DNA from: an uncultured Bacteroidia bacterium | Lineage (GTDB): Bacteria; Bacteroidota; Bacteroidia; NS11-12g; UBA955 | NCBI GenBank assembly: GCA_943788195.1 | Contig: CALSPH010000002.1 | Coordinates: 393,054 to 457,053, forward strand | Direction of reading: 5' to 3' | DNA length: 64,000 nt | Part shown: positions 5,180-41,807 of the stretch, piece by piece | Layout: each line of letters starts with the position of its first letter | How positions within the stretch are numbered: the first letter of the stretch is position 1 | Notes under the pieces: model-generated | Databases searched by the model: none | What the model saw: the letters and a program-made list of their open reading frames with translations, nothing else | What the model was told of the DNA's origin: nothing | Position numbers and translations under genes: made by a program

Positions 5180-5827
5180 ATGTTGCGCATACAAAAATTC
5201 ACTTTTAACCCCTTTCAAGAAAACACTTATGTTATTGTAAACGGGTCAACCGCTATTTTAATTGATCCCGGTATGAGCAATAAAATAGAAGAGGAAGAGT
5301 TGATTTCATTTCTCAAGGCACACAACTTAATCTTAGAAGCGGTGTGGCTCACCCATGCACATATTGATCATATTATGGGAATTGGATTCATACAGACTCA
5401 TTTTGATGTTCCATTTTATATGCATAGTTTAGAGCATGAAAATTTAAAAAGTGGCCCATTGGTAGCCAAAGCATATGGTATCCCGTTTAACGATTTTGAA
5501 GCGTTCTCCCCTTTTCTTTTAGATGATATGGAAAGGATATCAATCAATGACCAAACCTTTGAAATAATATTTGCGCCTGGACACAGTGCTGGAAGTATGT
5601 GCTTTTATCATAAAGACACCGGACAACTCATTGGAGGTGACGTACTATTTAGGCAAAGCATAGGAAGAACAGATTTGCCGGGTGGTGATTTTGAAACATT
5701 GCAGCAATCCATTCAGCAGAAAGTATATCTTCTTCCTGATGACACCACTGTATATTCGGGTCATGGTCCTGAGACCACCATTGGTTATGAAAAAGTAAAT
5801 AACGCCTTTATAAAAGCGCTCAATTGA
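5180..5827 (+). CDS. MBL-fold metallo-hydrolase (hydroxyacylglutathione hydrolase-like)
   Basis: HxHxDH metal-binding motif (LTHAHIDHIMG) and downstream His/Asp ligands. Confidence 0.7.
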   Translation: MLRIQKFTFNPFQENTYVIVNGSTAILIDPGMSNKIEEEELISFLKAHNLILEAVWLTHAHIDHIMGIGFIQTHFDVPFYMHSLEHENLKSGPLVAKAYGIPFNDFEAFSPFLLDDMERISINDQTFEIIFAPGHSAGSMCFYHKDTGQLIGGDVLFRQSIGRTDLPGGDFETLQQSIQQKVYLLPDDTTVYSGHGPETTIGYEKVNNAFIKALN

Positions 5828-13523: not shown

Positions 13524-13548
13524 ACTTCACTTTAACCATTATAAAAAA

Positions 13549-13580
13549 ACCCATTCGTTCTTTGACGGATGGGTTTTTTG
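13549..13580 (+). terminator. rho-independent terminator after gldJ
   Basis: ACCCATTCG...CGGATGGGT stem plus T6. Confidence 0.5.
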
Positions 13581-13637
13581 TTGACTAATGTGGGTAAATC
13601 GGTATATTCAACTTAGATAAATCAGTACATTTGAATA

Positions 13638-21815: not shown

Positions 21816-22832
21816 TTAAAAACCGTTCACTCCATTAACTGTGGTATATTTTAAGACTAAATTTTTATCTGGATAGATCCGTTTAAACGCTGATTGAACC
21901 ATCAATGTTCCTTCATGAAAACCGCAAAGTATCAGTTTAAGTTTACCAGGATATGTGTTTATATCTCCAATTGCATAAACCCCTTCAAGGTTGGTAGAAT
22001 AATCTGATGTATCCACCACAATGCTATCTTTTTCCAAAGCCAAATCCCAATCACCAATTGGACCCAAAGTCGGTTTCAATCCAAACAATGGAATAAAATA
22101 TTCCGCATCAATAAAGGTTTTTGAATCATCCCCTTTAATCGAAATGCCCACTTTATTTAATTTTTCGGTCCCTTGCAGCTCATCTACTTCTGCATTGGTG
22201 ACCAATTTAATTTTGCCGGTTTCAGCTAGCTTCATCACTTTTTCAACCGAATCCAAGGCTCCTCTAAAACCTGTTCTTCGGTGCACTAGATAAACTTCCT
22301 TGGCGACATCCGCTAAAAATATAGACCAATCCAAGGCCGAGTCGCCTCCACCACTAATTACAACCCGTTGATCTCTATATTTTTCAGGATCCTTTATCAT
22401 ATAATCTACTCCCTTATCTTCGTAATAGTTAATGTTCTCTATCTGAGGTTTTCTTGGGGTAAACACACCTAATCCTCCGGCAACAGCTACATTAGGCGCT
22501 ATGTGTTTGGTACCTGTATTGGTTTCAACACACCATCTACCATCATCCAACTTCGTTAATTTCTCTGCTTTTTCACCTAATGTAAACGCTGGTTTAAAAG
22601 GAGCAATTTGCTCCATTAGGTTTTCGACTAGATCACCCGCTAATATTTCAGGGAAGCCTGGAATATCATAAATGGGTTTCTTGGGGTAAATTTCCGCCAA
22701 TTGCCCACCTGGTATGGGTAATGAATCAATTAAATGACATTTTAGTTTAATCAATCCAGCCTCAAAAACCGTAAATAACCCCACTGGACCTGCCCCGATT
22801 ATTACGATATCTGTTTCAAATGTTTTGCTCAT
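21816..22832 (-). CDS. thioredoxin-reductase-like ferredoxin--NADP+ reductase
   Basis: N-terminal FAD fold IVIIGAGPVGLF and second NAD(P) Rossmann VVISGGGDSALD. 338 aa. Adjacent to and co-oriented with the ferredoxin gene. Confidence 0.7.
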   Translation of the reverse strand: MSKTFETDIVIIGAGPVGLFTVFEAGLIKLKCHLIDSLPIPGGQLAEIYPKKPIYDIPGFPEILAGDLVENLMEQIAPFKPAFTLGEKAEKLTKLDDGRWCVETNTGTKHIAPNVAVAGGLGVFTPRKPQIENINYYEDKGVDYMIKDPEKYRDQRVVISGGGDSALDWSIFLADVAKEVYLVHRRTGFRGALDSVEKVMKLAETGKIKLVTNAEVDELQGTEKLNKVGISIKGDDSKTFIDAEYFIPLFGLKPTLGPIGDWDLALEKDSIVVDTSDYSTNLEGVYAIGDINTYPGKLKLILCGFHEGTLMVQSAFKRIYPDKNLVLKYTTVNGVNGF

Positions 22833-30178: not shown

Positions 30179-30251
30179 GATTCCTTAGCTCAGCTGGTAG
30201 AGCATATCCCTTTTAAGGATAGGGTCCTGGGTTCGAACCCCAGAGGGATCA
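30179..30251 (+). tRNA. tRNA-Lys (anticodon TTT)
   Basis: Manual cloverleaf: acceptor GATTCCT/AGGGATC (one G-U), D-arm GCTC/GAGC, anticodon stem TATCC/GGATA with loop CTTTTAA, T-arm CTGGG-TTCGAAC-CCCAG, discriminator A. Confidence 0.85.
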
Positions 30252-30257
30252 CAAAAT
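30239..30257 (+). repeat. attL-like core: CCCAGAGGGATCACAAAAT at the tRNA-Lys 3' end, directly repeated at 41249-41267
   Basis: Exact 19-bp match between the 3' part of tRNA-Lys (T-stem 3' half, acceptor 3' half, discriminator and 6 nt downstream) and a site about 11 kb downstream. Confidence 0.6.
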
Positions 30258-30567: not shown

Positions 30568-30639
30568 CACATAAGCAGATAAGGGAAATAAACTCCATGT
30601 CCAAACTATTAGACATGGAGTTTATCTACTAGTTATGGG
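30568..30639 (+). repeat. attC-like imperfect palindrome A (CACATAAGC ... AGTTATGGGC), containing a perfect 13-bp inverted repeat
   Basis: TAAACTCCATGTC-(10 nt)-GACATGGAGTTTA palindrome flanked by CATAAG / GTTATGGG termini. The downstream ORF's ATG lies inside the GTTATGGG motif. Confidence 0.4.
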
Positions 30640-30922
30640 CAAGTTTATTACATTTGCAACTAAAGTAAACATGAATACAGATACATTAAAACTAATTCTC
30701 GATAGTATGAGAAAAGAGATCAAGGATAGAAAAACCTATCTTGAATCTTTACGAAAACTAACTACAAAAAAAAGGTTCGAAGTAAATGACGTACTCTTAC
30801 ATCAAGAAATTGTTGGAATCGAAAAATATTTGGAAAATGAGCAATTGTCATTAGAAGAAAAAGAAGAACTTGAAACTATAAAATCTGAATTAACGAAAAT
30901 ATCAACCTCAAAAAACAAATAA
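30635..30922 (+). CDS. hypothetical small coiled-coil protein (cassette-borne)
   Basis: 95 aa ORF. Its stop is 1 nt before the start of the next gene. Confidence 0.35.
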   Translation: MGKFITFATKVNMNTDTLKLILDSMRKEIKDRKTYLESLRKLTTKKRFEVNDVLLHQEIVGIEKYLENEQLSLEEKEELETIKSELTKISTSKNK

Positions 30923-30923
30923 A

Positions 30924-32645
30924 ATGAAAAAGAAATTTTTATTAACTGCAATGATTACAACCTTATTCATAGGTAAATCATACTCTCAAACAAATTTAAT
31001 ACAACAAGACACAATGATTTATTGTGATCAAGATAGTGCAATCATTCAATTAAACAATTCTTATAATCTTGTGGCTTGGGAAAAAGTAGGTTCATCTGGA
31101 TTAGTTTTAAATAATCAATTGACAATACGCGAATCTGGCTTTTACTATGTCTTTGCGGCAGATTCCACCTTAGGTGACACTACAATATGTTTTAGCACTA
31201 CTGATGCTTCTATGTCTACTTTGGTAAATGTTCCTGTTGGTTATATTATTACTGATGTTATTGCAGGTTATTATGGTACTCCAATCGCAAATTGCAGTAA
31301 TCCGTTACCTGGTTCTTGTCATTTTGATGCGACAAATATTATTAGGAAAGGACTTGTTGGAAAAAAAAGCTTTCAATATTACCAAGGTTTTCATCCTGAC
31401 TTGTGCACAGGTGTAGTAAAATCATTATATGTTAAGTTACGGTGCATGAAATATATTCAAGATTCAATTTATGTTTCGTTAATAAAAAAACCATTGAATT
31501 ATACTCTAATTTCTGATACAATAATTTGTTCCAATAATAATGTTTCTTTAACATTACCTGCCTTAATATGTGACACTACTTTTATACCTGTCGATACGCT
31601 CAATCTATCTGTTACATCAAATAATGACGTCAATTCTATATCTACAAAATCTGGCAGGCTATACCAAATAAAAGTATCAAATGCTGTTTCCTACGGTGGA
31701 GGTTCGGGTAATCAGGCTGATGGAGCCTATACAAATATTACTGCTAGTCCACTTGAGAACATAACTTGGCGTATAAATGGAATGCAATTTGGTACACTTA
31801 CTGATTTTCGACCAATTCCAAATGGTTATAACCCTTCCCACGAATATTATTTTTACTTAATAGGAAATGGTGAACCGTTTGTTTTTCGTGCAAATGATTG
31901 TTGCTTGGGGGATAATTCAGGTCAATTTCAATTTATTATAAGCGAAGTGTTAATCAACCAACAATGCAACCTAAATTACATATGGTCTAATGGTAACATT
32001 GGTAATACCGTTAATTTAGCTCCTTCAAATATTCCTTACACACTGTCATTAAGCAATGGTAATAATACTTGCACGATAGATACTTTTAATGTTACTGCCC
32101 AAAACACAATTAACACACAACCACAAAATCAAATCGTAAACATTAATGCTAATGTATTTTTCTTAGCCACATCGTCTAACCTAAGCGCCAATTACCAATG
32201 GCAAACCGACCTTGGTGTAGGCTTTCAAAATTTAAATAATGTTGGGCAATATAGTGGAACTACTAACGATACACTAACGGTTTTAAATGTAATGATTAGC
32301 AATAACAATCAACCATTCCGTTGCATTGTTTCTTCTGGTTCATGTTCTGACACATCAAATGTTGCAGTTTTAACCGTGAATAATAATGTTGGCATAAATG
32401 AAACCTCACAAGACAAACTATTCTCAGTGTTTCCAAACCCTGCGCAAAGTGTAATTAATGTAAAGGCAGACAGCAAACTTATCGGGTCGGTTTATTCCAT
32501 TTATGATAACACAGGAAGAGTTGTATTATCAGGAAAGCTAAACGCTGAAAGCACAACAATTGAGTTAGATAATTTATCAGGTGGTATTTATATGATCAGT
32601 GTTGGAGAAAATATGAAGCAGGCATTTAAGGTAATAAAGGAGTAA
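30924..32645 (+). CDS. secreted protein with T9SS C-terminal sorting domain (cassette cargo)
   Basis: Signal peptide MKKKFLLTAMITTLFIGKSYSQ. C-terminal 75 aa (FPNPAQSVINVKAD...GGIYMISVGENMKQAFKVIKE) is a T9SS CTD and about 55% identical to the CTD of the 36060-37238 product. Confidence 0.55.
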   Translation: MKKKFLLTAMITTLFIGKSYSQTNLIQQDTMIYCDQDSAIIQLNNSYNLVAWEKVGSSGLVLNNQLTIRESGFYYVFAADSTLGDTTICFSTTDASMSTLVNVPVGYIITDVIAGYYGTPIANCSNPLPGSCHFDATNIIRKGLVGKKSFQYYQGFHPDLCTGVVKSLYVKLRCMKYIQDSIYVSLIKKPLNYTLISDTIICSNNNVSLTLPALICDTTFIPVDTLNLSVTSNNDVNSISTKSGRLYQIKVSNAVSYGGGSGNQADGAYTNITASPLENITWRINGMQFGTLTDFRPIPNGYNPSHEYYFYLIGNGEPFVFRANDCCLGDNSGQFQFIISEVLINQQCNLNYIWSNGNIGNTVNLAPSNIPYTLSLSNGNNTCTIDTFNVTAQNTINTQPQNQIVNINANVFFLATSSNLSANYQWQTDLGVGFQNLNNVGQYSGTTNDTLTVLNVMISNNNQPFRCIVSSGSCSDTSNVAVLTVNNNVGINETSQDKLFSVFPNPAQSVINVKADSKLIGSVYSIYDNTGRVVLSGKLNAESTTIELDNLSGGIYMISVGENMKQAFKVIKE

Positions 32646-32650
32646 GCCAG

Positions 32651-32784
32651 CCCTTAACAGCACCTAAAAGAAATTGGCGGAAATGTGCTCCGCAGAAAGA
32701 TTTGTGATGAAAGAAAAATTCTTCTCCACAAAAGCATCTCGGTTAAAACCCGCCAACTTCTTTTAGCTGCAAACCGTTATGGGT
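32651..32784 (+). repeat. attC-like imperfect palindrome B (134 bp)
   Basis: 5' CCCTTAACAGCACCTAAAAGAAATTGGCGG pairs with 3' CCGCCAACTTCTTTTAGCTGCAAACCGTTATGGG (21/23 complementary). Termini AAC/GTT. Begins 6 nt after the stop codon. Confidence 0.5.
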
Positions 32785-32935
32785 AATATTAATAAACAAG
32801 ATTAAGACAAAATCCACTGAATCAAACTGACTAATAAAAGAATGGTCATAGAATAGTTCAAAAAATAATATCGGGTCAGAATAAGCCGAACAAGACCAAA
32901 AAATTTGAAGTAGGCAAAACTTAAATTATAATGAG

Positions 32936-33343
32936 ATGAAAAAAAATATTTTCCTAAGTCTTCTTTTAGTAACACTTTTTGGTTTCTCCGCAATGTCGCA
33001 GTCAATTATTGTAAAAGATGGAAATTATAATATCCAATTGCGTATTGACGGTGATATTGTGAAAAATAATAATTATGATATTATTGGCCGAATTGACGGT
33101 AGCATAATTAAAGACGGTAATTATAATATTATTTGCCGAATTGACGGGAACACAATTAAAGATGGTAATTATAATATTATTGGCCGAATTGACGGGAACA
33201 CAATTAAAGATGGTAATTATAATATTGTTGGCCGAATTGACGGGAACATAATTAAAGATGGCAATTATAATATTGTTGGCCGAATTGACGGTTCACCAAG
33301 AAGTAAACAAATGATTTCAATTCTGTATTTTCTTGTATTGTGA
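32936..33343 (+). CDS. small secreted protein made of six 16-aa tandem repeats (KDGNYNIIGRIDGNxI)
   Basis: Signal peptide plus six in-frame 48-bp DNA tandem repeats (33014-33301) with a few substitutions each. Confidence 0.5.
   Translation: MKKNIFLSLLLVTLFGFSAMSQSIIVKDGNYNIQLRIDGDIVKNNNYDIIGRIDGSIIKDGNYNIICRIDGNTIKDGNYNIIGRIDGNTIKDGNYNIVGRIDGNIIKDGNYNIVGRIDGSPRSKQMISILYFLVL
33014..33301 (+). repeat. 48-bp coding tandem repeat x6
   Basis: aaagatggtaattataatattattggccgaattgacgggaacacaatt and five close variants, head to tail. Confidence 0.8.
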
Positions 33344-33448
33344 TATTTTGTACCATATACATTAGAGAAAAATGGAATTATTGGAAATGCTTGGAAGTTA
33401 AATAAATGACACCGTTATTATTTTGACTACTACTCCGATAAATAAAAA

Positions 33449-33510
33449 CCCATAACACAGTGTATAGTGCATACCCTTCGGGATACGCACCATACACAAA
33501 ACGTTGTGTT
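33449..33510 (+). repeat. attC-like imperfect palindrome C (62 bp)
   Basis: CCCATAACACAGTGTATAGTGC ... GCACCATACACAAAACGTTGTGTT. Inner stem GTGTATAGTGC/GCACcATACAC and a central CCC-TTCG-GGG tetraloop hairpin. Confidence 0.45.
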
Positions 33511-33515
33511 TAATT

Positions 33516-34193
33516 ATGAGAATTACTTTTTCCATATTTACCATTCTAATTTGCTCAAACTTATTTGGGCAAAGCATACTTCTGGATACCAATATTGTTG
33601 GTGCATTAAACGAGGTAAATAGAATAAGGCATATCGCAGGATTGGATAGTGTGTCTCTTTCAAAAGAATTAAGTAAAGGCTGTTCCCTTCATGCAAAATA
33701 CCTTGCGATTAATAAAGGGAACCCCAAAATACAAGGTCTTAATGCTCATAAAGAATATAAATCATTAAAAGGAGCTACGCTTGAAGGAATGAAGGCAGGT
33801 AAAAACTCTGTCATCAATTATATTATGCCAAAAGAGTCAGTAGCTGGTTGGGAAGCTACTTTTTATCATAGAATCCCATTATTACAACCAAAATTAAAAG
33901 AAATAGGAATCGGCTATTTTATCCCTAACAATTCTTACCCTATCAGCCTAGTTGAATGTATAACTGGAGCAACAGGAACCGACACGACTTCAATAGTCTA
34001 CTACCCTGCAAAGGAACAGCAAGATGTTCCAACAGCTATGGGAGCAGAAATTCCACACCCAATGGGAAGTCAAGGAGATTATGGTTACCCAATTACAATT
34101 TATTTTTGCAAATGGCAGGAAATCAAAAATGTAACATTAAGACTGAATAAATCAGACACACTTATTGATTGCAATATATCAACACCAGAATAA
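33516..34193 (+). CDS. CAP/SCP-domain secreted protein; the frame continues in another frame to 34362
   Basis: Signal peptide MRITFSIFTILICSNLFGQ and CAP-domain core (GCSLHAKYLA...NAHKE...AGWEATFYHRIP). The ATG at 33516 is preferred over the TTG at 33504. An overlapping 65-aa ORF (34165-34362) is in another frame. Confidence 0.6.
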   Translation: MRITFSIFTILICSNLFGQSILLDTNIVGALNEVNRIRHIAGLDSVSLSKELSKGCSLHAKYLAINKGNPKIQGLNAHKEYKSLKGATLEGMKAGKNSVINYIMPKESVAGWEATFYHRIPLLQPKLKEIGIGYFIPNNSYPISLVECITGATGTDTTSIVYYPAKEQQDVPTAMGAEIPHPMGSQGDYGYPITIYFCKWQEIKNVTLRLNKSDTLIDCNISTPE

Positions 34194-34535
34194 ACCAGCA
34201 ACAAACTTTCCCCAATGGAACACAATATGTGCCATACCTAAAAAGCCTTTAGAACCGAATACTGTTTACAAAATTTCATTTAGCTGTACAATAAATGGAG
34301 TACTTCATCGAGAAGAATATCAATTTAAAACTAAACACAACGGGTTAGTATATGAAAAGTAGGCGATTTCTAAACACAAAACTTTCAGTTAAGCACAAAG
34401 TTTGATATGAGCCAAAAGCCTTGAATTTACTACTATTCCGCCTATTTTTTATATACATTGTTACCAAACGTGTTTTTTAAATGAGCTCGATTAAACTTTT
34501 ACAATTAAGGTAAATGGTTAAATCTGTCCTATTCT

Positions 34536-35864
34536 TTAAAATGATATCTGTGCTCCTAAAACAATTCCCATGCTATTGGCATCTCTATCACTATGAGTGG
34601 TGCCAGGAGGGAATGGATCAAAGTCAGCACTTCCACTTATAAAATTTAATGGAGCAAAACCTTCAGTTCTGAATATTTCAACAAATAGTTTTGCTGATTT
34701 ATTCATTAAGGCTTGATATCCTAGAACATACTGGTTTTGTCTTTCCCAGGGAGCCCCATTTGGTCCAGCTATAAAATTTGAAAATTCTCCAGAAAGTGTA
34801 TGTTTGATTTTACCTACTTTATTTAAATCATATTTTGCACCAAGACTCAATGAACTAACTTTAGAGGCTTCAAATATATTTAGTGGTGGTGTTGGATTAA
34901 ATGTACCTTCCCATTCATCAAAAGTTTTTGCAAATGAAGCCATTACGATAAGACGATTATTTACATCTAATGTACCGTATACAGTATACTCAGGATTGTT
35001 TTCTTCACAAGGTGTAAAATGAAAAACAGGAAAGCCTTGGCAATATGCACCTCCTTTTTTATATGATGCACCAGCTTTTAAATTTACTTTATCAGAAATA
35101 ACTAATTTATAGTTTAAATCTGCAACAAGATTGTTAAGTTTTGAAGGCACAGCAGTTGCATTCCCAACAGGTACATGTAATGCTCTAAATTGAGCACCTC
35201 CTTGAGCCAACATGATTTTAGCATGAAGCCCTCCTTTATTATATCCAATCTGGGCACCGTAACCTAGACCACCGAATGCATGCCACATAGTTGAATTAGT
35301 AAATGGGTTTACAGTTCCCATTTGTCCGAATGGAGCATCCATTTTTCCCACAGCACTGTAAAATGGTGATTTATTCAAGTTTCCAAAAACTACAAACGCT
35401 TTCCTTAATTGAATTTGATTTCTATTTAGATTTGTAATAGTACCTGAGCCAAAACTTTGTTCAGGGTTATATAATAATTCAGCATAGGAAGTTATCCAAC
35501 TATTAATGGTAGCTGTGACTGATAACTGAAAAGAATGAATCACGGCCTCACTTACATCTTTTCCAATCTGATTATTTGCAGTTGGATGCCTCATAAGATA
35601 ACCAAATTTTGAGTCTGTATTAGAATGCTGGTAATCAACAATAGAAATTAATGAAGTACCAATAATTAAATTGTTATTTTTAATAAGTTCATTTTTCTTT
35701 GAATTGAGAAGTATTTCTACTTTTCTTAAATTTTGGTTTTGATCTAGCATTTTGTAACTAAACTCAGGGTTGATTCCAATTCTTTTAATAGCGGTTGTGT
35801 CGATTTGAGCTAATGCGTAATTCCCTATCAGAAGTAGGGTTAGGAGGAAGAATATTTTTTTCAT
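34536..35864 (-). CDS. outer-membrane beta-barrel (porin-like) protein
   Basis: Signal peptide, alternating amphipathic strands rich in G, Y and N, and a C-terminal ...GAQISF with terminal Phe. Confidence 0.45.
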   Translation of the reverse strand: MKKIFFLLTLLLIGNYALAQIDTTAIKRIGINPEFSYKMLDQNQNLRKVEILLNSKKNELIKNNNLIIGTSLISIVDYQHSNTDSKFGYLMRHPTANNQIGKDVSEAVIHSFQLSVTATINSWITSYAELLYNPEQSFGSGTITNLNRNQIQLRKAFVVFGNLNKSPFYSAVGKMDAPFGQMGTVNPFTNSTMWHAFGGLGYGAQIGYNKGGLHAKIMLAQGGAQFRALHVPVGNATAVPSKLNNLVADLNYKLVISDKVNLKAGASYKKGGAYCQGFPVFHFTPCEENNPEYTVYGTLDVNNRLIVMASFAKTFDEWEGTFNPTPPLNIFEASKVSSLSLGAKYDLNKVGKIKHTLSGEFSNFIAGPNGAPWERQNQYVLGYQALMNKSAKLFVEIFRTEGFAPLNFISGSADFDPFPPGTTHSDRDANSMGIVLGAQISF

Positions 35865-35918
35865 ATTTTAAAGTATTTAAGTTTTATTTGTTTCAGTTAA
35901 TTTATGTTTGGTAACAAA

Positions 35919-35981
35919 GGCTAAAATACATAACCTAACCTACCAAACCAATTTTACGTATTTTAGCCAGAACGTTATGGG
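35919..35981 (+). repeat. attC-like imperfect palindrome E
   Basis: GGCTAAAATAC / GTATTTTAGCC perfect 11-bp stem. ACATAAC ... AACGTTATGGGCAAG termini shared with other copies. Confidence 0.4.
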
Positions 35982-36059
35982 CAAGTTTGAAAAATCACAA
36001 ACTAAATTATACTATTTGATAGGGAATTAGACTTAAAAAAACTTAATAATATATCTAAA

Positions 36060-37238
36060 ATGAAAAAAATAACATTACAATTTCTTTTATTCTGTTGCTT
36101 AAGCGTTTCAGCTTATGGCCAATGGCAACCATCTGCAGGAACGGCTGGATTAAATATGCAGTCATTATTAACAAATGGCATCTACAATTTTGCAGGAGGA
36201 CAAACGGGAGCTTACCTTTCCACTGATAGTGCCGCAAATTATTCATTATCAAATACCGGAAATGACAATATTGGTCCTACAAGAGGTTTTACAAAGGATA
36301 ACAATTATATCTATACTTGCACAAGTCAAGGTGCTTTTAGAAGCTCTGACAATGGAGCAACTTGGGTTTCTAAAAGTGTTGGATTAACCAATTTACTAGG
36401 AGGCGGAATTTTAAATGCAGGCACAAGATTGTTTTATGTAGGACCAACTGGTGTTTTTATGTCAACGAACCAAGGAGATAATTGGAGTGCAGCAGGTTTA
36501 TCAACAACAGATGTAAGATGCATTACAGCAATAAATGACACATTATTTGTTGGAACAAATGGCGCTGGTATTTATAAAAGTATTGATTGGGGAGCTAACT
36601 GGATTCCAATTAATAATGGCTTAGGCGGTTCTACAAATTTTAGAGCCATAGAAAGCAAAGGAAACATACTTTTCGCTGGTGGACAAATAGGAACAGGCGT
36701 TTATCGCTCCACAGATTTTGGTGCAAATTGGACATTATTAGGAGGAGGGCTTGCATCAGGATCTTATAGGGGATTTGCCAGCAACTCACAGTTAATTGTT
36801 GCTGGCTCTTTTGGCGCAGGTGTTTTTTACTCAACAGATAATGGCAATAATTGGACAGCAATCAATACTGGTTTAACTGATTTGACTATTTTTGATTTAG
36901 AACTTAACGACAATTACATAATTGCAGCTACTAATACTCAAGGGGTATTTCGTTTTGCGCTTTCTAATCTGAATTTATCTACCGACATATCTGATTTTGA
37001 TTTAAAAAATGCAATTTCTCTTTTTCCTAATCCAACCACAAATCAAATCAATGTAAAATCCGATTGTAAAATTATTGGAACGGCATATACTATCTATGAC
37101 AATTTAGGTAAAGCCATTTTATCAGGATTAATAAATTATGAGAATGCTATTATAGAAATGGGGCATTTAACTGGTGGCATTTATACGTTGAGTATTGGAG
37201 AAAATAAGAAACAAGTGTTCAAAATAATTAAACAATAA
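36060..37238 (+). CDS. BNR/Asp-box repeat protein with T9SS C-terminal sorting domain (cassette cargo)
   Basis: Signal peptide. Repeated SxDxGxxW Asp-box motifs (SDNGATW, TNQGDNW, SIDWGANW, STDFGANW, STDNGNNW). CTD paralogous to that of the 30924-32645 product. Confidence 0.6.
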   Translation: MKKITLQFLLFCCLSVSAYGQWQPSAGTAGLNMQSLLTNGIYNFAGGQTGAYLSTDSAANYSLSNTGNDNIGPTRGFTKDNNYIYTCTSQGAFRSSDNGATWVSKSVGLTNLLGGGILNAGTRLFYVGPTGVFMSTNQGDNWSAAGLSTTDVRCITAINDTLFVGTNGAGIYKSIDWGANWIPINNGLGGSTNFRAIESKGNILFAGGQIGTGVYRSTDFGANWTLLGGGLASGSYRGFASNSQLIVAGSFGAGVFYSTDNGNNWTAINTGLTDLTIFDLELNDNYIIAATNTQGVFRFALSNLNLSTDISDFDLKNAISLFPNPTTNQINVKSDCKIIGTAYTIYDNLGKAILSGLINYENAIIEMGHLTGGIYTLSIGENKKQVFKIIKQ

Positions 37239-37244
37239 AACCAG

Positions 37245-37322
37245 CCCATAACAGCGTGTAAGCAATATTGCCTTGCCGCGGGCGCAACACAAGGAAAAAT
37301 CGCCTACACGCAAAACGTTAGC
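37245..37322 (+). repeat. attC-like imperfect palindrome F
   Basis: CCAGCCCATAACAGCGTGTAAGC ... GCCTACACGCAAAACGTTAGCG. Its first 15 nt (CCAGCCCWTAACAGC) are shared with copy B. Confidence 0.5.
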
Positions 37323-37341
37323 GTTAATAAAATCAAAATAA

Positions 37342-38211
37342 ATGAATAAGATGACGAAAATAATTTTAAGTGCGATGATGGTTTTTACTATGACTATTGC
37401 AAATGCACAAAGTAAGAAGGAACAGATTGAAAATCTAACTTTTTCATTAGATAGCTTGAATCAATTAGTAGCTGTCGAACGGCAAAACTTCATCACTACT
37501 TTAGATAGCTTGAATCAACTTCTTAGTAAGAACAAACAAGATTTTGAATTAGAGATGGACAAATCTAGTATCACAATCGAGAACCTCAATTCTCAATTAA
37601 TTAGATTGTATTCGATAAATGATTCAATAAACATTGAACTCATAACTAAGGATCAAAAAATAGACTCACTAACACTAAAGAACTTGAGGCTTTTAGCAGA
37701 TATAGATTCGTTAAGTAACCCTAAAATTGACAAAGAGAATAATTGGATTTTAATCGAAAGTAATCTTAAATGGATAGAGAAAGATTATAGTACAACAATA
37801 CAATGGCTTAATAATAATATTTTTGATGAAGGCTCAGAAATTCAAACAACTCGCCAAGACATTTACACCCCCACCTGCTATTCATATGTAATGGATGCTA
37901 TGGACTATTATTGGGGCTATCCTGGTAGTATAGAAGAAGACGAATTTAAATCAAAATGGAATTCAATGTTTGATTTGAAGTACTCGTCTTTCGGTCACGC
38001 ATTCCAAAATGGAAATTGTGGTTGGGCATCATTTAAATTGGAAAACATAGAGTTCCTAGGGTCTCTAAATGACGGGGATTGGTGTAAATTAACAATTTTA
38101 GGAGGATGTGGTGAAAATGATTATTCACAAACGCTTGTAAGAGTAGTAAAAATAATAGAAGAAAACGGCTCTTTTAGAATCGCAAATTTTATATCACTAA
38201 GAGATGAATAA
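37342..38211 (+). CDS. hypothetical secreted protein (N-terminal coiled coil with duplicated LDSLNQL segment, Cys/Trp-rich C-terminal domain)
   Basis: Signal peptide MTKIILSAMMVFTMTIANAQ. No family recognised. Confidence 0.4.
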   Translation: MNKMTKIILSAMMVFTMTIANAQSKKEQIENLTFSLDSLNQLVAVERQNFITTLDSLNQLLSKNKQDFELEMDKSSITIENLNSQLIRLYSINDSINIELITKDQKIDSLTLKNLRLLADIDSLSNPKIDKENNWILIESNLKWIEKDYSTTIQWLNNNIFDEGSEIQTTRQDIYTPTCYSYVMDAMDYYWGYPGSIEEDEFKSKWNSMFDLKYSSFGHAFQNGNCGWASFKLENIEFLGSLNDGDWCKLTILGGCGENDYSQTLVRVVKIIEENGSFRIANFISLRDE

Positions 38212-38264
38212 CGCTAACAACACCTAAACTGCATTAAAACGCAGTTTAGCCTAAACGTTATGGG
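38207..38264 (+). repeat. attC-like imperfect palindrome G (58 bp)
   Basis: AATAACGCTAACAACACCTAAACTGC-ATTAAAAC-GCAGTTTAGCCTAAACGTTATGGG. Perfect 9-bp inner stem. Overlaps the stop codon of the upstream gene. Near-identical to copy I. Confidence 0.5.
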
Positions 38265-38374
38265 TAAGTTGAAAACATATTGCGGTCAAAGAGATCATCT
38301 AAAACATAATGGTTCATCCAAAATATTTGTAAAACTCTTTTTATATTTGAAAATAAAATTATAAAAAACCCAAC

Positions 38375-38443
38375 CCATAACAATTTGTATAGCGCATATG
38401 CTCCCTGCGGGATGCAAACGCATCATACTAGGACCGTTATGGG
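38375..38443 (+). repeat. attC-like imperfect palindrome H (69 bp), apparently ORF-less cassette
   Basis: CCCATAACAATTTGTATAGCGCAT...TGCTCCC-TGCG-GGATGCA...GGACCGTTATGGG. Only 110 bp separates it from copy G, with no plausible ORF between them. Confidence 0.45.
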
Positions 38444-38557
38444 CAATTAAAAAGAATAATTGTAAATCTAGATAATGTGGAGTCCAGAACCCACAAAAAT
38501 AAACGGGGCGATACTGAAATGCCTTATGATTAGGAACAAAATTTAAATAAAATAATT

Positions 38558-39157
38558 ATGAAAAAAGTAATGACAATTTTTGGAGCAATTCTATTTGCTT
38601 CAATAAACTTAACAAGTTGCGGGAGCGATTCAAAGTCGAAATCTGTTGAAAAGACAAATGAGGAATCTGCTGCAATAACTGAAGATACAAATCAGAAATC
38701 TACTGCAATTATTGAAGATATTGTAAATGACGATAATACTGAATATTACATAATTGAAGACCCAGACGGTTATTCTAATTTAAGAGAAGTGCCAAGTGGT
38801 AATGTTATAAGAAAAGTATATAGCAGTGAGAAGTTTGAGATAATAGGTGAGGAAAATAAATATAAAAAAGTGCAGTTCCCTGACGCCTCAACCGGCTATA
38901 TCCACAACTCAAGAGTTGTTAACTTTAATGTCAAGGTTTGCGAATGTCTCCATTCAGCTGATGAAATGATAAATAAAGATTTAGATAAAGACTTCAGTAC
39001 TGGTTCAGAAACAGGTTTTTCAGACAACTGGAAGCCATCATACACAGAAAGACTTGTTGAAATTTTTAGATATAATCAATGCCCAAAGGGCTGTGATTTT
39101 CTGGGTGATCATGATGTAATAGATTTTCAAAGTGAAATTCAACGTTGCTCAGAGTAG
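38558..39157 (+). CDS. lipoprotein with SH3b-like domain
   Basis: Lipobox INLTSC. Bacterial SH3-like segment DPDGYSNLREVPSGNVIRKVYSSEKFEI...YKKVQF...GYIHNSRV. Confidence 0.4.
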   Translation: MKKVMTIFGAILFASINLTSCGSDSKSKSVEKTNEESAAITEDTNQKSTAIIEDIVNDDNTEYYIIEDPDGYSNLREVPSGNVIRKVYSSEKFEIIGEENKYKKVQFPDASTGYIHNSRVVNFNVKVCECLHSADEMINKDLDKDFSTGSETGFSDNWKPSYTERLVEIFRYNQCPKGCDFLGDHDVIDFQSEIQRCSE

Positions 39158-39202
39158 TTTAACGTTTTATATCAGGAAGTTTTAATAAAAATTAAACTTT
39201 CA

Positions 39203-39257
39203 CATAACAACACCTAAACTGCATTAAAACGCAGCTTAGCTAAAACCGTTGTAAACC
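39203..39257 (+). repeat. attC-like imperfect palindrome I (paralog of G)
   Basis: CATAACAACACCTAAACTGCATTAAAACGCAGCTTAGCTAAAACCGTTGTAAACC, about 90% identical to copy G. Confidence 0.5.
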
Positions 39258-39280
39258 AATTAAAAATCAAATTATAAATA

Positions 39281-40075
39281 ATGAATAAAATAGAGTATAT
39301 AGAAAATGAGATTTCTGAATTAAGAAATGAATTGAAAAATCATAAACTTTATGAAAATTTACGTAACATTAATGACGTGAAAATTTTTATGGAAAATCAC
39401 ATATTTGCAGTATGGGATTTTATGTCTCTTTTAAAAAATCTTCAAATAAATCTCACTAAAGTTCAAACACCTTGGACACCGCCAAAAAACGCAAAACTAT
39501 CAAGATTTATAAATGAAATTGTTCACGGAGAGGAAAGTGACATTAATGAATTGGGAGAACCAAAGAGTCATTTTGAGATGTATTTAGATGCTATGCTCCA
39601 AGTAAATGGGAATACGAATGAAATCAATGATTTTATTAAGCTTATTGAATTGGGAAATTCAGTTGACTATTGTTTTAGTCAAGTTAATGTCGATAACAGA
39701 ATAGCTGATTTTGTTAAATTCACATTTTCGATTATTGAAACAAATAAGCCACACCTCGTAGCTTCTGCATTTACGTTTGGGCGAGAAGACGTTATTCCAG
39801 ATATGTTTATCGAAATTCTTAAAAATTCAGATTCTGAAAACAAATTATATAGCAAAATAAATTACTATCTCGAACGACATATTGAACTTGACGGAGATGA
39901 ACACGGTCCTCTATCTCTTGAGATGATTTCTGAATTATGTAAAGATGATGAGCAAAAATGGAATGAAACACTAACTGTAGCTAAACAATCATTAGAAAAA
40001 CGAATTGAACTTTGGAATGCTATATCTGATTTAATACAGAATAAAAAGCCTGCATATAACACCGTGTATAATTAA
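39281..40075 (+). CDS. hypothetical protein, possibly DUF3050-like (heme-oxygenase-like fold)
   Basis: 264 aa cytoplasmic all-alpha protein ([13 protein letters not shown]...). Family assignment is from memory only. Confidence 0.35.
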
Positions 40076-40168
40076 TTGCTTTGGCAAGTGCCTATTTGGA
40101 AAATTCCTTCGGAATTTTCTCGCGTTCGTTTTTGTTTACTAAATTAGTTGCTTAAACACGCAACTAAC

Positions 40169-40956
40169 GGTTCTGTCGCGTTAACTATTGCAATGTAATA
40201 AATCTTTAGGTTTGCTATGTAAAAATTACCTTCATGTTCAAACGTCACAGATATCCAAGAGCAATCATTCTTCAAGCGGTTTATTTCAAGTTGAGATTCA
40301 CATTGAGTTATCGAGATGTGGAAGAATTACTAAAAATTCGAGGTGTTAAAGTAGACCATTCCACTATTCAAAGGTGGGTGTTTAAGTTCAGCCCAATGAT
40401 TGAGGCTACTATGCACAAGAGGAAGAAACAGGTATGTGATAGTTGGCGAATGGACGAAACCTACATCAAGGTAGCAGGTAAAGACAGATACTTATATCGA
40501 GCTGTAGACAAGCAAGGAAATACTGTAGACTTCCTACTAACTAAACGGAGAATGAAGGGTTCTGCACAGAGGTTTCTAAACAAAGCCATAGGTAACAATG
40601 GAAAACCAAGACTGATTAATATTGATAAAAGTGGAGCAAATACTGAAGCTATCCGTATTATCAATAGATATAGTTTAACCTTCAAGAAGATAAAGACCAG
40701 GCGAGTCAAGTATCTAAATAACATAGTGGAGCAAGATCATCGGACGATCAAACGTCGAATAGCCATTACAACAGGATTCAAAGAATTTGAATCCGCTCAG
40801 AGAACACTTGCAGGAATAGAAATCATAAACATCATCAGAAAGGACCAACTTACAAATCCAAAGAAAAGTTGGTTTGCTACATTTAAGTCATTGGCTGCTT
40901 GATGAAAGTTGAATTCTGCTAAATTTAAATCCTCAATGATTTAATGCGACAGAACC
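40169..40956 (+). mobile_element. IS6-family insertion sequence (788 bp)
   Basis: Terminal inverted repeats GGTTCTGTCGCGTTAAC (left) and GTTTAATGCGACAGAACC (right), 16/17 complementary and resembling the IS257/IS26 ends GGTTCTGTTGC. Single transposase ORF. No 8-bp target-site duplication detected. Confidence 0.7.
40234..40902 (+). CDS. IS6-family transposase
   Basis: 222 aa. DDE region with DETYIKVAGKDRYLYRAVD and the typical IS6 N-terminal HTH (RYPRAIILQAVYFKLRFTLSYRDVEELL). Confidence 0.8.
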   Translation: MFKRHRYPRAIILQAVYFKLRFTLSYRDVEELLKIRGVKVDHSTIQRWVFKFSPMIEATMHKRKKQVCDSWRMDETYIKVAGKDRYLYRAVDKQGNTVDFLLTKRRMKGSAQRFLNKAIGNNGKPRLINIDKSGANTEAIRIINRYSLTFKKIKTRRVKYLNNIVEQDHRTIKRRIAITTGFKEFESAQRTLAGIEIINIIRKDQLTNPKKSWFATFKSLAA

Positions 40957-41442: not shown

Positions 41443-41516
41443 CGGGATGTGGCGCAGTCCGGTAGCGTACACGGCTGGGGGCCGTGCGGTCGCAGGTTCA
41501 AATCCTGTCATCCCGA
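41443..41516 (+). tRNA. tRNA-Pro (anticodon GGG)
   Basis: Manual fold: acceptor CGGGATG/CATCCCG, D-arm GCGC/GCGT, anticodon stem CACGG/CCGTG with loop CTGGGGG, T-arm GCAGG-TTCAAAT-CCTGT, discriminator A. Confidence 0.8.
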
Positions 41517-41548
41517 CAAACAAAAACGAATAAAAACATTGTCAACGA

Positions 41549-41807
41549 AATGAATGAAACAAATCAACGATTTGATTTCATGAGAGATTTGACAATGACG
41601 AGCGTTAGCGAGATTCGTTTTTAATTCCAGCGTTGGATGTAATTGGATTCACGTAAGTAAATCCATTCCAATTAATCCTACTATTTTTAACAATGAATGA
41701 AACAAATCAACGATTTGATTTCATGAGAGACTTGACAATGACGAGCGTTAGCGAGATTCGTTTTTAATTCCAGCGTTGGATGTAATTGGATTCACGTAAG
41801 TAAATCC
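41549..41807 (+). repeat. tandem direct repeat: two about 115-bp copies (41549-41664 and 41693-41807; one mismatch), period 144 bp
   Basis: aatgaatgaaacaaatcaacgatttgatttcatgagag[a/c]tttgacaatgacgagcgttagcgagattcgtttttaattccagcgttggatgtaattggattcacgtaagtaaatcc occurs twice. Each unit contains an AAATCAA-CGAT-TTGATTT hairpin. Confidence 0.8.

Follow-up and report, generated by a model that had tools for sequence, protein, structure and literature searches.

Introduction

Groups of attC sites found without an integrase are termed CALINs (Cury et al. 2016, PMC4889954). Surveys with IntegronFinder have found integrons to be rare in Bacteroidetes, and In0-type IntI genes have been reported from the same group. 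The rarity in these surveys suggests that standard models may miss sites of the type described here. Here, a 64-kb stretch of DNA (the window) from an uncultured, T9SS-bearing Bacteroidota species is analysed, in which the region from 30.6 to 40.2 kb is likely to hold nine gene cassettes in an integron-type array that has no integrase of its own (CALIN-like) and lies in the chromosome between tRNA-Lys and tRNA-Pro. The array probably belongs to a Bacteroidota-wide, non-canonical class of integron, of which no published description was found. The original prediction of an integron-like array is supported, with its boundaries corrected, and 'integron-like' is more apt than 'integron' since in relatives such arrays are headed by an integrase that lacks the IntI additional domain.

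Results

The 10-kb array has tRNA-Lys on one side and an IS6-family element on the other. The left chromosomal boundary of the island is tRNA-Lys(UUU) (30179..30252, + strand; ARAGORN; Rfam tRNA, 68.7 bits) and the right boundary is tRNA-Pro(GGG) (41443..41517, + strand; ARAGORN), with a G+C content of 31-34% in the array region and 36-39% in the flanks. The insertion sequence (40169..40956, + strand; inverted repeats GGTTCTGTCGC; transposase 40234-40902, DDE_Tnp_IS240 1.6e-42) has removed ~6.4 kb from the distal end of the array in the window strain. The lost part is kept in strain L033, and strain L004 has a larger IS-adjacent deletion than the window.

Within the window there are ten hairpin sites, all on the + strand, of the form ...AAC–imperfect stem–GTT.... 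The eight or more attC-like elements originally listed are all present where they had been placed, but the list was incomplete and two further boundaries were found. The motif GTTATGGG occurs six times in the 64 kb, five of them within the array region. The first site, E1 (30568..30640), is attI-like or a degenerate attC (bottom-strand fold z = -6.8), with a perfect 17-bp hairpin (30589-30625) followed by CTACTA and the GTT at 30632-34; of the 6 nt after this GTT, 5/6 agree with the R'' flank of E2. E2 (32651..32782) is attC-like, comprising R'' CCCTTAAC, a 117-nt imperfect hairpin and R' GTTATGGGT, and its bottom strand folds at -27.5 kcal/mol (z = -5.3), the top strand being less stable. In E3 (33449..33509; CCCATAAC ... 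GTTGTGT; fold z = -3.9) all 3/3 stem mismatches become G.T on the bottom strand. E3b (34333..34469; AAACACAAC ... GTTACCAAAC), identified by a heuristic scan, has its R'' at 34333-34341 and the GTT of its R' at 34460. This R'' is the exact reverse complement of the E3 R' flank, and the R' matches the E4 R'' equally well (6/6 in each case; 10/10 by eye). Since E3b, which had been overlooked, lies between a CAP gene and a reverse-strand 442-aa gene, these are two separate cassettes and not one. E4 (35906..35982) runs from GTTTGGTAAC to GTTATGGGC, its true start being GTTTGGTAAC (35906-35915) and not the ACATAAC at which its 5' core was first placed. E5 (37245..37325; CCCATAAC ... GTTAGCGTT) folds at -14.5 kcal/mol on the bottom strand, where it has G.T pairs, versus -10.6 kcal/mol on the top strand, and its body is seen again in E11 and E12 of L033. 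E6 (38210..38265; loop TGCATTAAAACGCA) belongs to a phylum-wide family, here called type B, and its R'' overlaps the stop codon of the preceding gene. E7 (38374..38444; CCCATAAC ... GTTATGGGC) has an identical copy in L033, E8 (39201..39256; CACATAAC ... GTTGTAAAC) is again type B, and the last site, E9 (40053-40168), is cut at 40168 by the IS6-family element, intact copies in other strains (L007, L033) ending in GTTGGCACAC. In 12/13 sites the fold of the bottom strand is more stable than that of the top strand (p = 7e-4); the two extrahelical bases that the original prediction suggested looking for do not appear as a consistent pair across sites.

The attC-like identity was assessed with a covariance model of structure and sequence, R1, trained on 83 related sites, all from other genomes. 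The model matches E6 (73.8 bits, E = 3e-14), E8 (65.3 bits, E = 3e-12), E3 (50.9 bits, E = 8e-9), E4 (45.3 bits, E = 1.7e-7) and E7 (29.8 bits, E = 7e-4), and E5 marginally, all on the + strand. It gives no other match at E < 0.01 in the 64-kb window, and the original observation that such elements are missing from the other ~53 kb is borne out. The type-B family is present in at least 120 genome stretches, almost all from Bacteroidota and from many families, and covariation in the stem is seen at pair 17-44 (CG/GC/AU) and at pair 24-39 (CG/AU), with 0/500 shuffles reaching the observed score. The bottom strand is the more stable in 77/83 type-B sites, a bias that is partly built into the search because a conserved A.C mismatch lies in the search pattern. 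Single type-B hairpins also stand far apart in Tenacibaculum nBUS_03 (at 1.14, 1.22, 1.64 and 3.65 Mb), and the hairpin is found in 72 viral contigs.

The sites are linked through their flanks. Across 12 junctions, the 6 nt 3' of a GTT and the 6 nt 5' of the next AAC are reverse complements at 66/72 positions, whereas a site's own two ends match at only 21/72; permutation gave a mean of 31.1 (sd 5.7, maximum 63) and 0/200,000 permutations reached 66/72. Intact E9, E10, E11 and E12 of L033 are perfectly complementary to their neighbours over 9-10 nt, and perfect neighbour-to-neighbour chains of 9-11 nt occur in L160, L103, L114, L061 and L075. Complementarity between the flank after a GTT and that before the next AAC is the pattern left by circular cassettes that recombine at G|TT. 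The junctions from E7 to E8 (4/6) and from E8 to E9 (3/6) are weak and the DUF3050 cassette of the window has a swapped 5' leader, so some boundaries are not clean site-specific products.

It could be argued that the hairpins are REP/BIME- or MITE-like repeats or terminators clustered in an island, with strain differences arising by homologous recombination or slippage. Their position 3' of genes, the dispersed single copies in Tenacibaculum nBUS_03 and in viral contigs, the direct repeat at one strain deletion (see below) and the IS-mediated deletions of L004 and the window are in keeping with this. However, neither repeats nor terminators predict the junction complementarity or the perfect 9-11 nt chains. 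Furthermore, the A.C mismatches lie on the transcribed strand, making the hairpin weaker on the transcript, no T-run was seen in the sites read, no copies lie in the remaining 53 kb, and the orientation-specific tie to a tyrosine recombinase described below would be unexplained. This explanation is already disfavoured and is considered highly improbable.

Each cassette begins with the TT of one GTT, ends with the G of the following one and holds 0-2 genes, with an imperfect hairpin site at its end (...YAAC - stem - C-GTT...). Cassette 1 (30633..32776, + strand) carries the Bacteroidota -7 promoter motif TACATTTG at 30649, a small ORF (30671-30922) and a 573-aa T9SS-sorted protein (30924-32645; Por_Secre_tail 6.6e-11). 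Cassette 2 (32777..33503, +; junction 6/6) encodes a 135-aa beta-flower protein (32936-33343; Bflower_2 2.9e-12) and cassette 3 (33504..34460, +; junction 6/6) a CAP-family secreted protein (ORF 33504-34362; CAP 6.3e-8), the gene being a split ORF in the window and intact at 276 aa in other strains. From the ORF list, cassette 4 (34461..35974), bounded by GTTACCAAAC and GTTTGGTAAC, encodes the 442-aa outer-membrane-like protein on the - strand (34536-35864). Cassette 5 (35975..37317, +; junction 6/6) encodes a 392-aa BNR-repeat T9SS-sorted protein (36060-37238; Por_Secre_tail 1.6e-8) and cassette 6 (37318..38257, +) a 289-aa protein of unknown function (37342-38211); the initial TTAGCGTT of cassette 6 is complementary to the AACGCTAA that precedes its own AAC. 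Cassette 7 (38258..38436, +), with a promoter-like TATATTTG at 38342, has no ORF, as noted originally, but is better described as a recurring ~115-nt ORF-less leader module than as an empty cassette: in L033 the module precedes a 302-aa ORF as its 5' leader, and a second copy there is split by an IS4-like element. Cassette 8 (38437..39248, +) combines a DUF805 RNA motif (38472-38540; RF03081, 68.8 bits) with a 199-aa SH3-domain lipoprotein (38558-39157; SH3_3), and cassette 9 (39249..40168, +) a DUF3050 (HamA/heme-oxygenase-like) gene (39281-40075; DUF3050 3.4e-98) with E9.

Judged by nucleotide identity, single cassettes have been transferred horizontally. The DUF3050 cassette, including E9, is 96.4% identical to one in Winogradskyella sp. 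PC-19, and the 90% cluster of its protein covers at least five genera and families; the SH3 cassette is 89.5% identical over 582 nt to a recombinase-adjacent cassette in L077.

The strain comparison proposed with the original prediction showed that strains differ by whole cassettes and that the change falls precisely at the GTT junction. Strain L007, which co-occurs with the window strain and is otherwise 99.8% identical, lacks exactly one cassette, cassette 6, from GTT to GTT, and E5 is joined directly to the cassette following E6 (...cacgcaaaacG|TTATGGGTAAG). An 8-nt direct repeat, AAACGTTA, flanks this deletion, and slippage could also account for that single loss. In strain L032 a different first cassette follows the GTT of E1, cassette 1 being absent or replaced, and divergence starts right after the E1 GTTA (GTTATGGGC in the window versus GTTAGCTTT and a different cassette in L032). 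Low G+C, the tRNA-Lys and tRNA-Pro borders, the IS6 element and a cassette order that is the same in most of ~20 strains could also reflect a tRNA-linked island of secreted-protein genes gained as one block, its hairpins being relics without recombination in this lineage. This is very doubtful for three reasons: L007 and L032 are two independent cassette-level variants among strains at least 99% identical, the near-identity with other genera is per cassette and not for the whole block, and an island integrase is absent.

No IntI-like gene was found, as originally stated for the window: tblastn with IntI1 and three Bacteroidota recombinases, run against the window and 39 related loci, gave no match at E ≤ 1. 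Nor was a recombinase found across the 64 kb or in ~40 kb of additional flanking sequence from other strains. The array is therefore of the CALIN type. In other Bacteroidota, chained arrays of the same type begin directly downstream of a co-oriented tyrosine recombinase, the first chained site lying ~45-70 nt past its stop codon in the recombinase-bearing loci examined. This association is based on ~16 loci: 11/120 site-anchored tiles hold the recombinase or a fragment (11/11 co-oriented with the site and 10/11 upstream of it), and 4/5 recombinase-anchored loci have chained sites directly downstream, with at least 13 sites in CP138991.1. The enzyme is 375-385 aa long, its catalytic residues are RKHRHY, and it carries ~100 additional aa at its N-terminal end. 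In sequence it is about equally close to XerA and IntI (archaeal XerA 4a8e, 6e-46), the structures most similar to its predicted fold are XerA and VchIntIA, and the region between the catalytic Lys and His is of Xer length. The IntI additional domain is absent from the array-head recombinases examined, and by current criteria such an enzyme 'is not IntI'.

Discussion

The locus might instead be the remnant of a canonical integron, an ordinary CALIN served by a standard IntI, complete with the additional domain and encoded elsewhere in the genome, the domain-less recombinase being a mere neighbour. The AAC/GTT cores, bulged hairpins, bottom-strand bias and G|TT junctions are attC architecture, the In0-type IntI genes come from the same phylum, and the top match of the foreign-site model in plasmid R100 is the aadA1 attC (14.1 bits, E = 0.13). 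However, this is unlikely: each recombinase-bearing locus examined has a co-oriented array-head enzyme of the domain-less family, no IntI with the additional domain was found in ~1 Mb of site-anchored tiles, and standard models may overlook sites of this type.

Under the preferred reading, a non-canonical integron-type array, a recombinase of the array-head family encoded elsewhere in the genome would excise and insert cassettes in trans; it counts against this reading that no recombinase gene was found in the window or the extra flank. Recombination may act on folded bottom-strand hairpins, by analogy with IntI and attC; as the sites lack a consistent extrahelical pair and the enzyme lacks the domain that reads these bases in IntI, the details of the mechanism may differ from those of IntI. 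Cassettes would exist as circles, opened and joined at G|TT, with E1 as a putative attI-like entry site. Most of them are probably promoterless, and their transcription would start from the promoter-like leaders found in cassette 1 and in the ORF-less module. The IS6-family element later removed the distal part of the array in the window strain.

With REP/BIME elements the array shares short conserved hairpins 3' of genes, at times as dispersed single copies, but REPs lack cassette-specific complementary flanks, precise gene-plus-site indels and polarity to a recombinase gene. With Xer systems (XerA/XerC/XerD at dif; the pdif modules of Acinetobacter plasmids) it shares discrete gene modules bounded by the presumed sites of a recombinase, and the array-head enzyme is as near to archaeal XerA as to IntI, with a Lys-His region of Xer length. 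In contrast, dif and pdif are duplexes of 28 bp that carry a pair of binding arms in inverted orientation, and successive sites alternate in orientation in pdif modules, whereas the array sites are long hairpins in a single orientation with cassette-specific outer arms; unlike Xer modules, the arrays adjoin a recombinase gene. From integrons, the Bacteroidota arrays differ in a recombinase that lacks the additional domain, has the extra N-terminal region and is co-oriented with the cassettes, in R-box complementarity reaching 9-11 nt, in hairpin bodies, even the loop TGCATTAAAACGCA, whose sequence is conserved across families of the phylum, in sites without a consistent G/T extrahelical pair, and in that no Pc promoter was identified. 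Nevertheless, the features shared with integrons and CALINs include mostly co-oriented, mostly promoterless cassettes, some of them reverse-oriented, TA-like or ORF-less; a cassette-end imperfect palindrome of 52-200 nt with an ...AAC 5' core and a GTT... 3' core that folds better on the bottom strand; exchange at G|TT, seen in circular-permutation complementarity and strain indels; cargo of unknown or secreted function, with horizontal transfer of single cassettes; and, in relatives, an array-head tyrosine recombinase, about equally IntI- and XerA-like, followed by an attI-like site.

Anatomy of the array

The array lies between the genes for tRNA-Lys (30179-30252) and tRNA-Pro (41443-41517), in a region with a G+C content of 31-34% against 36-39% in the flanks. 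By Pfam, the flank genes are housekeeping genes (SDR, AhpC, DegT, MscS, Adk, Obg and PheT) and the search of these flanks returned no integrase. Sequence reading and core location found the elements of the original prediction where it had placed them; in each, an imperfect hairpin separates a 5' core that ends in AAC from a 3' core of the form (A/C)C-GTT. Of the six copies of GTTATGGG in the 64 kb, five fall within the array region. Two points of anatomy required correction following a stem-aware scan: a site had been overlooked, E3b, with its R'' (AAC) side AAACACAAC at 34333-34341 and its R' (GTT) side GTTACCAAAC at 34460, and the start of E4 had been misplaced and is revised to GTTTGGTAAC at 35906-35915. 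Since E3b was found between them, the CAP gene and the reverse-strand gene are two separate cassettes. A direct pairing of E3 with E4 gave poor complementarity and the matter was settled by the intervening E3b. The window contains ten sites in all (E1, E2, E3, E3b and E4-E9) within 9.6 kb, and these, together with five more in the strain variant L033, share the arrangement of a 5'-core AAC and a 3'-core GTT around an imperfect palindrome whose length varies (38-181 nt for the inner part). The simple AAC-stem-GTT heuristic is of only moderate specificity, and two scan matches (13534-13582 and 22482-22594) were discarded for showing no cassette signature.

The cassettes, taken as units running from the TT of one GTT to the G of the next, encode two T9SS-sorted proteins, a beta-flower protein, a CAP-family protein, an SH3 lipoprotein, a DUF3050 protein, a 442-aa outer-membrane-like protein on the reverse strand and a 289-aa unknown protein. 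The CAP-family gene (33504-34362) is split into overlapping ORFs (33504-34193 and 34165-34362); given that the gene is whole in other strains, at 276 aa, the split is attributed to a frameshift or a sequencing error. The beta-flower gene contains a 48-nt repeat in 4.6 in-frame copies, 94% identical (33070-33291), and a 143-nt tandem repeat (1.8 copies, 99% identical, 41549-41807) lies between tRNA-Pro and the DegT gene. The DegT spacing of two strain-variant loci, L011 and L012, differs by 143 nt, which suggests copy-number variation of the latter repeat between strains.

An Rfam search of the region assigned no family to the elements and returned only the two tRNAs and a DUF805 RNA (RF03081; 38472-38540, + strand), full-length at 68.8 bits against a gathering score of 51.1. 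This cis-regulatory motif belongs to the 5' leader of the gene for the SH3-domain lipoprotein and, because it sits within the cassette, is a candidate riboswitch-like element carried as cassette cargo. Most cassette leaders are 12-38 nt and have no Bacteroidota -7 motif. Such motifs are present at 30649 (TACATTTG) in cassette 1 and at 38342 (TATATTTG) in an ORF-less module and, judged from these motifs, transcription probably starts at both. This module, read in the original prediction as an empty cassette, is a recurring unit of ~115 nt that begins TTATGGGTAAGTTGAAAACATATTGCGG and contains the promoter-like TATATTTG, with copies at 38258-38373 of the window and at 2885-2985 and 3997-4106 of L033. 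In another strain the module forms the 5' leader of a 302-aa SH3 gene, and an IS4-like element splits a further copy in that strain.

Complementarity at the junctions

The array has a cassette structure, which is seen most directly at its junctions. If cassettes are circles opened at G|TT, the bases after the GTT in front of a cassette form part of it and are expected to pair with the bases before the AAC of the cassette's own site. Across 12 consecutive junctions of the window and strain L033, the 6 nt after the GTT of site n-1 matched the reverse complement of the 6 nt before the AAC of site n at 66 of 72 positions, against 21 of 72 for the control, in which the two ends of the same site were compared. 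When partners were permuted (n=200,000) the mean was 31.1 (sd 5.7) and the maximum 63, with no permutation as high as 66. The informative pairs, given as post-GTT and pre-next-AAC bases, are GTTAGCGTT with AACGCTAAC, GTTGTGTTTA with TAAACACAAC, GTTACCAAAC with GTTTGGTAAC, GTTGGCACAC with GTGTGCCAAC, and GTTAGTAAAA with CTTTTACTAAC. Perfect complementary chains of 9-11 nt are found in seven loci of foreign genomes (L160, L163, L168, L103, L114, L061 and L075). This junction pattern is not predicted by REP elements or by terminators.

Hairpin folding and the site family

The sites are biased towards folding of the bottom strand. Compared with shuffled sequences, bottom-strand folding gave z = -6.8 for E1, -5.3 for E2, -3.9 for E3, -3.3 for E6 and -3.1 for E8. 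With DNA parameters, the inner region was more stable on the bottom than on the top strand in 12 of the 13 sites from this species (p = 7e-4; mean difference -2.9 kcal/mol), in 8 of 12 sites of the foreign locus L160 and in 77 of 83 sites of the sequence-conserved type-B family, for which the bias is partly imposed by the search pattern. Stem mismatches in E3, E5, E6 and the L160 sites are A.C on the top strand and G.T on the bottom. This bias fits a single-stranded bottom-strand substrate, by analogy with attC, and disfavours terminators of coding-strand transcripts; moreover, the stems read run into (A/C)CGTT and a variable flank without T-runs, unlike intrinsic terminators. The spacers are unpaired and unequal (0-5 nt versus 4-7 nt), a single-base bulge on the '' arm is confined to one type-B subfamily, with mismatches rather than bulges elsewhere, and no L-box could be defined.

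The loop TGCATTAAAACGCA is common to E6, E8 and E10, the last being one of the extra sites of L033. A scan of species-representative genomes for TGCATTAAAACGCA-N12-13-CGTT gave at least 120 stretches; among the matches listed, nearly all were from Bacteroidota (Flavobacteriaceae, Crocinitomicaceae, Vicingaceae, Saprospiraceae and Cytophagales) and a few from Balneolaceae or Marinimicrobia. Within this type-B family the body is conserved and the outer 4-7 nt on each side are variable, and in the multi-copy loci L114, L103, L075 and L061 these outer bases pair between neighbours. The stem covaries over 83 distinct sites, pair 17-44 being CG in 39, GC in 31 and AU in 8, and pair 24-39 being CG in 40 and AU in 30. 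The covariation score of 0.206 was reached by none of 500 shuffles, which gave 0.061, and sliding the partners brought it to no more than 0.04.

A covariance model trained only on these 83 sites of foreign genomes, with none from the window, stood in for the attC model by which the elements were to be checked, and it does score the window sites: E6 at 73.8 bits, E8 at 65.3, E3 at 50.9, E4 at 45.3 and E7 at 29.8, all on the + strand. E5 (+) reached 17.7 bits, which is not significant (E = 0.5), and nothing else in the whole window had E < 0.01. In the R100 class 1 integron, the best match of the model was the aadA1 attC on the correct strand, a weak match of 14.1 bits (E = 0.13). BLAST of the region upstream of E1 and of the leader module against all foreign loci gave no match.

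Dispersed single copies of the type-B hairpin are present in other genomes. The hairpin also occurs, mostly in single copies, in 72 IMG/VR viral contigs (L169-L240), where a third stem variant, GTATAAAG/CCTTATAC, is compensatory when set against both chromosomal subfamilies; contigs L207 and L215 also encode a related recombinase. The viral hairpins may be Bacteroidota phage cassettes or attachment sites, or may reflect host contamination.

Variation between strains

The locus was found in ~20 metagenome contigs at 99.3-99.96% identity, and these strains differ by the gain or loss of cassettes, with exchange at or within the GTT. The cassette-level variation anticipated for an integron-like array is borne out: L007 is without exactly 37318-38257 of the window, which is cassette 6, a one-cassette difference from GTT to GTT whose junction (...cacgcaaaacG|TTATGGGTAAG) fuses the body of E5 to the cassette after E6, and L032 departs from the window right after the GTTA of E1, where a different cassette, of 95 aa, replaces window cassettes 1-3. 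By this comparison E1, which is followed by a TAnnTTTG motif, behaves as the first exchange site. L032 was rejected as a clean cassette deletion; its right junction is inside a related attC and its left flank is 97.5% identical, and for these reasons homologous exchange was possibly involved.

In L007 and L033, E9 carries no IS and the array runs ~6.4 kb further, with at least five more sites. Cassettes in this extension include those for a C92 peptidase, for an SH3 protein and for two unknown proteins. The extension further holds an ORF-less module copy split by an IS4-like element and a gene for a 199-aa membrane protein, and it ends with a reverse pair of small genes followed by the same IS6 copy. 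In the window, E9 is interrupted at 40168 by this IS6-family element (IRs at 40169 and 40956; DDE_Tnp_IS240 transposase) and, since L007 and L033 continue past E9 without an IS there, the end of the window array is read as an IS6-adjacent deletion. The deletion at the window end and the larger one in L004 were accordingly rejected as cassette events. A single IS6-family copy is at the distal array end in all strains (window 40169-40956; L004 17010; L033 7264) and has given rise to at least two distinct adjacent deletions into the array, ending at window positions 40168 and 36012. The two small reverse-oriented genes at the distal end of the full array (L033 6466-6951, - strand; 74 and 41 aa) resemble the reverse-oriented toxin-antitoxin cassettes of chromosomal integrons. 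No recombinase was found between tRNA-Lys and tRNA-Pro in any strain.

Cassettes shared with other taxa

Individual cassettes are shared between genera, which extends the cassette-level variation beyond the species. The 90%-identity protein cluster of the DUF3050 protein spans Polaribacter, Winogradskyella, Lacinutrix, Crocinitomicaceae and Salibacteraceae, whereas the clusters of the flank proteins Obg, PheT and MscS contain the window's species alone. The DUF3050 gene and its attC (E9) recur at 96.4% nucleotide identity in the complete genome of Winogradskyella sp. PC-19, in a different array, where the preceding GTTATATGC is the exact complement of the cassette's own GCATATAAC; an unassigned contig (L017) has the same arrangement. 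A second example involves a Vicingaceae single-cell genome (L077), in which the cassette following the recombinase matches the SH3 cassette plus E8 at 89.5% identity across 582 nt.

The leader of the DUF3050 gene in the window (39249-39285) is short, 32 nt (TTGTAAACCAATTAAAAATCAAATTATAAATA), and the same leader precedes an unrelated 199-aa gene in L033 (5521-5560). In Winogradskyella (L165) and L017 the DUF3050 leader is ~170 nt and begins TTATATGC, matching its own R''. As this leader differs by genome and recurs before an unrelated gene, leaders have seemingly been swapped independently of ORFs. The Winogradskyella locus also has, between ordinary sites, two ORF-less mini-units of ~75 nt (5605-5680 and 6903-6975) that share a core and whose 13-nt ends are perfectly complementary (GTTGGTATGTAAT...ATTACATACCAAC and GTTGGTGAGTAAT...ATTACTCACCAAC).

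A recombinase in related genomes

The sites of relatives have a polarity towards a recombinase. The probe was IntI1, whose sequence was checked and agrees at 100% identity with the intI1 annotated in plasmid R100. In the 8-kb tiles surrounding type-B sites it revealed related tyrosine recombinases, 377-397 aa long, in L130, L077 and L115, and fragments in eight further site-anchored tiles. All 11 genes or fragments are co-oriented with the site and 10 are upstream of it (chance ~1e-6 under random side and strand), L067 being ambiguous in that sites flank its fragment on both sides. Many tiles (L057, L074, L072, L099, L065, L066, L145 and L067) have only C-terminal fragments upstream of sites, which suggests that the integrase gene beside arrays often decays. 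At E < 1e-20 the family numbers no fewer than 7,994 proteins, which share 55-65% identity between genera and are annotated as 'site-specific tyrosine recombinase/integron integrase' or XerD.

Five family members, chosen solely for their long contigs, provided a recombinase-anchored sample, and in four of these five loci chained co-oriented sites directly follow the recombinase. CP138991.1 (L160) has at least 13 sites of ~185 nt with perfect neighbour complementarity, a GTTGTACAAC site ~45 nt past the recombinase stop codon that pairs with the first attC, and one cassette with the Pfam integron-cassette domain Hfx_Cass5. L163, L167 and L168 have shorter chains and L162 has one hairpin site. Every complete platform examined has, ~65-100 nt upstream of the recombinase and divergent from it, a conserved gene of 122-131 aa to which Pfam gives no confident domain (L160 9563-9934, L162 9547-9915, L163 9562-9936, L167 9507-9902, L168 9532-9909 and L077 3479-3856), and just past this gene L163, L167 and L168 encode a second tyrosine integrase, of CTn type (412-443 aa).

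The recombinase retains the catalytic R, K, H, R, H and Y residues. Its match to the integron-integrase model TIGR02249 is broken into two segments (model positions 8-177 and about 240-315) and, at 190-197 bits, falls short of the cutoff (265); NF040815, the XerA/integron-integrase model, gives about the same score. Among solved structures XerA (4a8e) was best, at 6e-46 in one stretch, and VchIntIA (2a3v) followed at 5e-38 in two stretches. VchIntIA residues 178-243 have no counterpart, with 24 query residues against 66 in the chain, and ~43 residues are missing at the same place in the IntI1 alignment; the missing segment is the IntI 'additional domain'. An AlphaFold model (pLDDT 82.7) is about equally near XerA and VchIntIA, and its added region spans the first ~100 residues and includes a beta-beta-alpha-beta-beta-alpha-beta unit at residues 1-75.

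Discussion

The reading of the region as an integron-like CALIN, a cluster of attC sites lacking an integrase, holds, with ten sites in 9.6 kb and no tyrosine recombinase in the 64-kb window or its strain variants, the label being conditional on accepting the window sites as attC. From its sequence, the array would work like an integron. In the proposed mechanism, the recombinase would bind folded bottom-strand hairpins and cut at the AAC/GTT box, and cassettes would be excised as circles and inserted at the first site, which would be E1 here and the post-stop site in the complete platforms. In this species the enzyme would act in trans from another locus. In place of the extrahelical-base and additional-domain recognition of IntI, the system may rely on a long R box of 9-11 nt, a conserved loop, a conserved G.T wobble and the N-terminal domain.

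Whether this is an integron in the strict sense is a separate matter. Integrons are considered mostly Proteobacterial and are defined operationally by an integrase domain "necessary for activity"; the additional domain is reportedly needed for IntI activity (a finding ascribed to Messier and Roy). The array-head recombinase of the relatives has no counterpart of an intI_Cterm-type additional domain and, as far as these relatives indicate, the array would fail as a strict-sense integron on its integrase. Cury et al. (2016; PMC4889954) use the intI_Cterm profile of this domain to define IntI.

On balance, we lean towards the view that Bacteroidota (Flavobacteriales, Cytophagales, Saprospiraceae and neighbours) have their own ancient and widespread class of integron, with an integrase intermediate between Xer and IntI that has an N-terminal extra domain and lacks the IntI additional domain, and with attC sites of sequence-conserved hairpins and extended R boxes; cassette capture would be routine, including in secondary integrase-less arrays like that of the window and possibly at phage sites. 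This view draws on the sequences of ~160 loci. If it is true, a phylum at present counted as almost free of integrons would in fact use them regularly, since such a class would escape both of the profiles by which today's integron finders define their targets. IntegronFinder surveys give Bacteroidetes only In0 elements and one complete integron (Salinibacter), and reviews merely place Bacteroidetes among the phyla in which integrons are detected; no description of a Bacteroidota cassette system was found in the full-text literature accessible without subscription. It would also follow that hairpin-based cassette recombination is possible without the IntI additional domain, that an intermediate in the evolution of IntI from Xer, or a branch parallel to it, is still living, and that secreted, T9SS-sorted, defence and other accessory genes are exchanged by an unrecognised route in a major phylum, both environmental and host-associated. 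The recombinase family, the attI-like sites and the three compensatory stem variants of one site offer material for direct tests.

Three known systems invite comparison. Xer/dif (pdif) modules rely on 28-bp duplex sites with two inverted arms, a 6-8 bp spacer and alternating orientation, whereas the sites here are hairpins of 52-200 nt in one orientation. REP/BIME-like repeats, against which the prediction was to be judged, are scattered after unrelated core genes without gene-specific flanks; the window array is unlike them, given that no such elements are present in the other ~53 kb of the window and the flanks of the sites are cassette-specific. Finally, intrinsic terminators have a G+C-rich perfect stem and a T-run, while the stems read here carry A.C mismatches on the coding strand.
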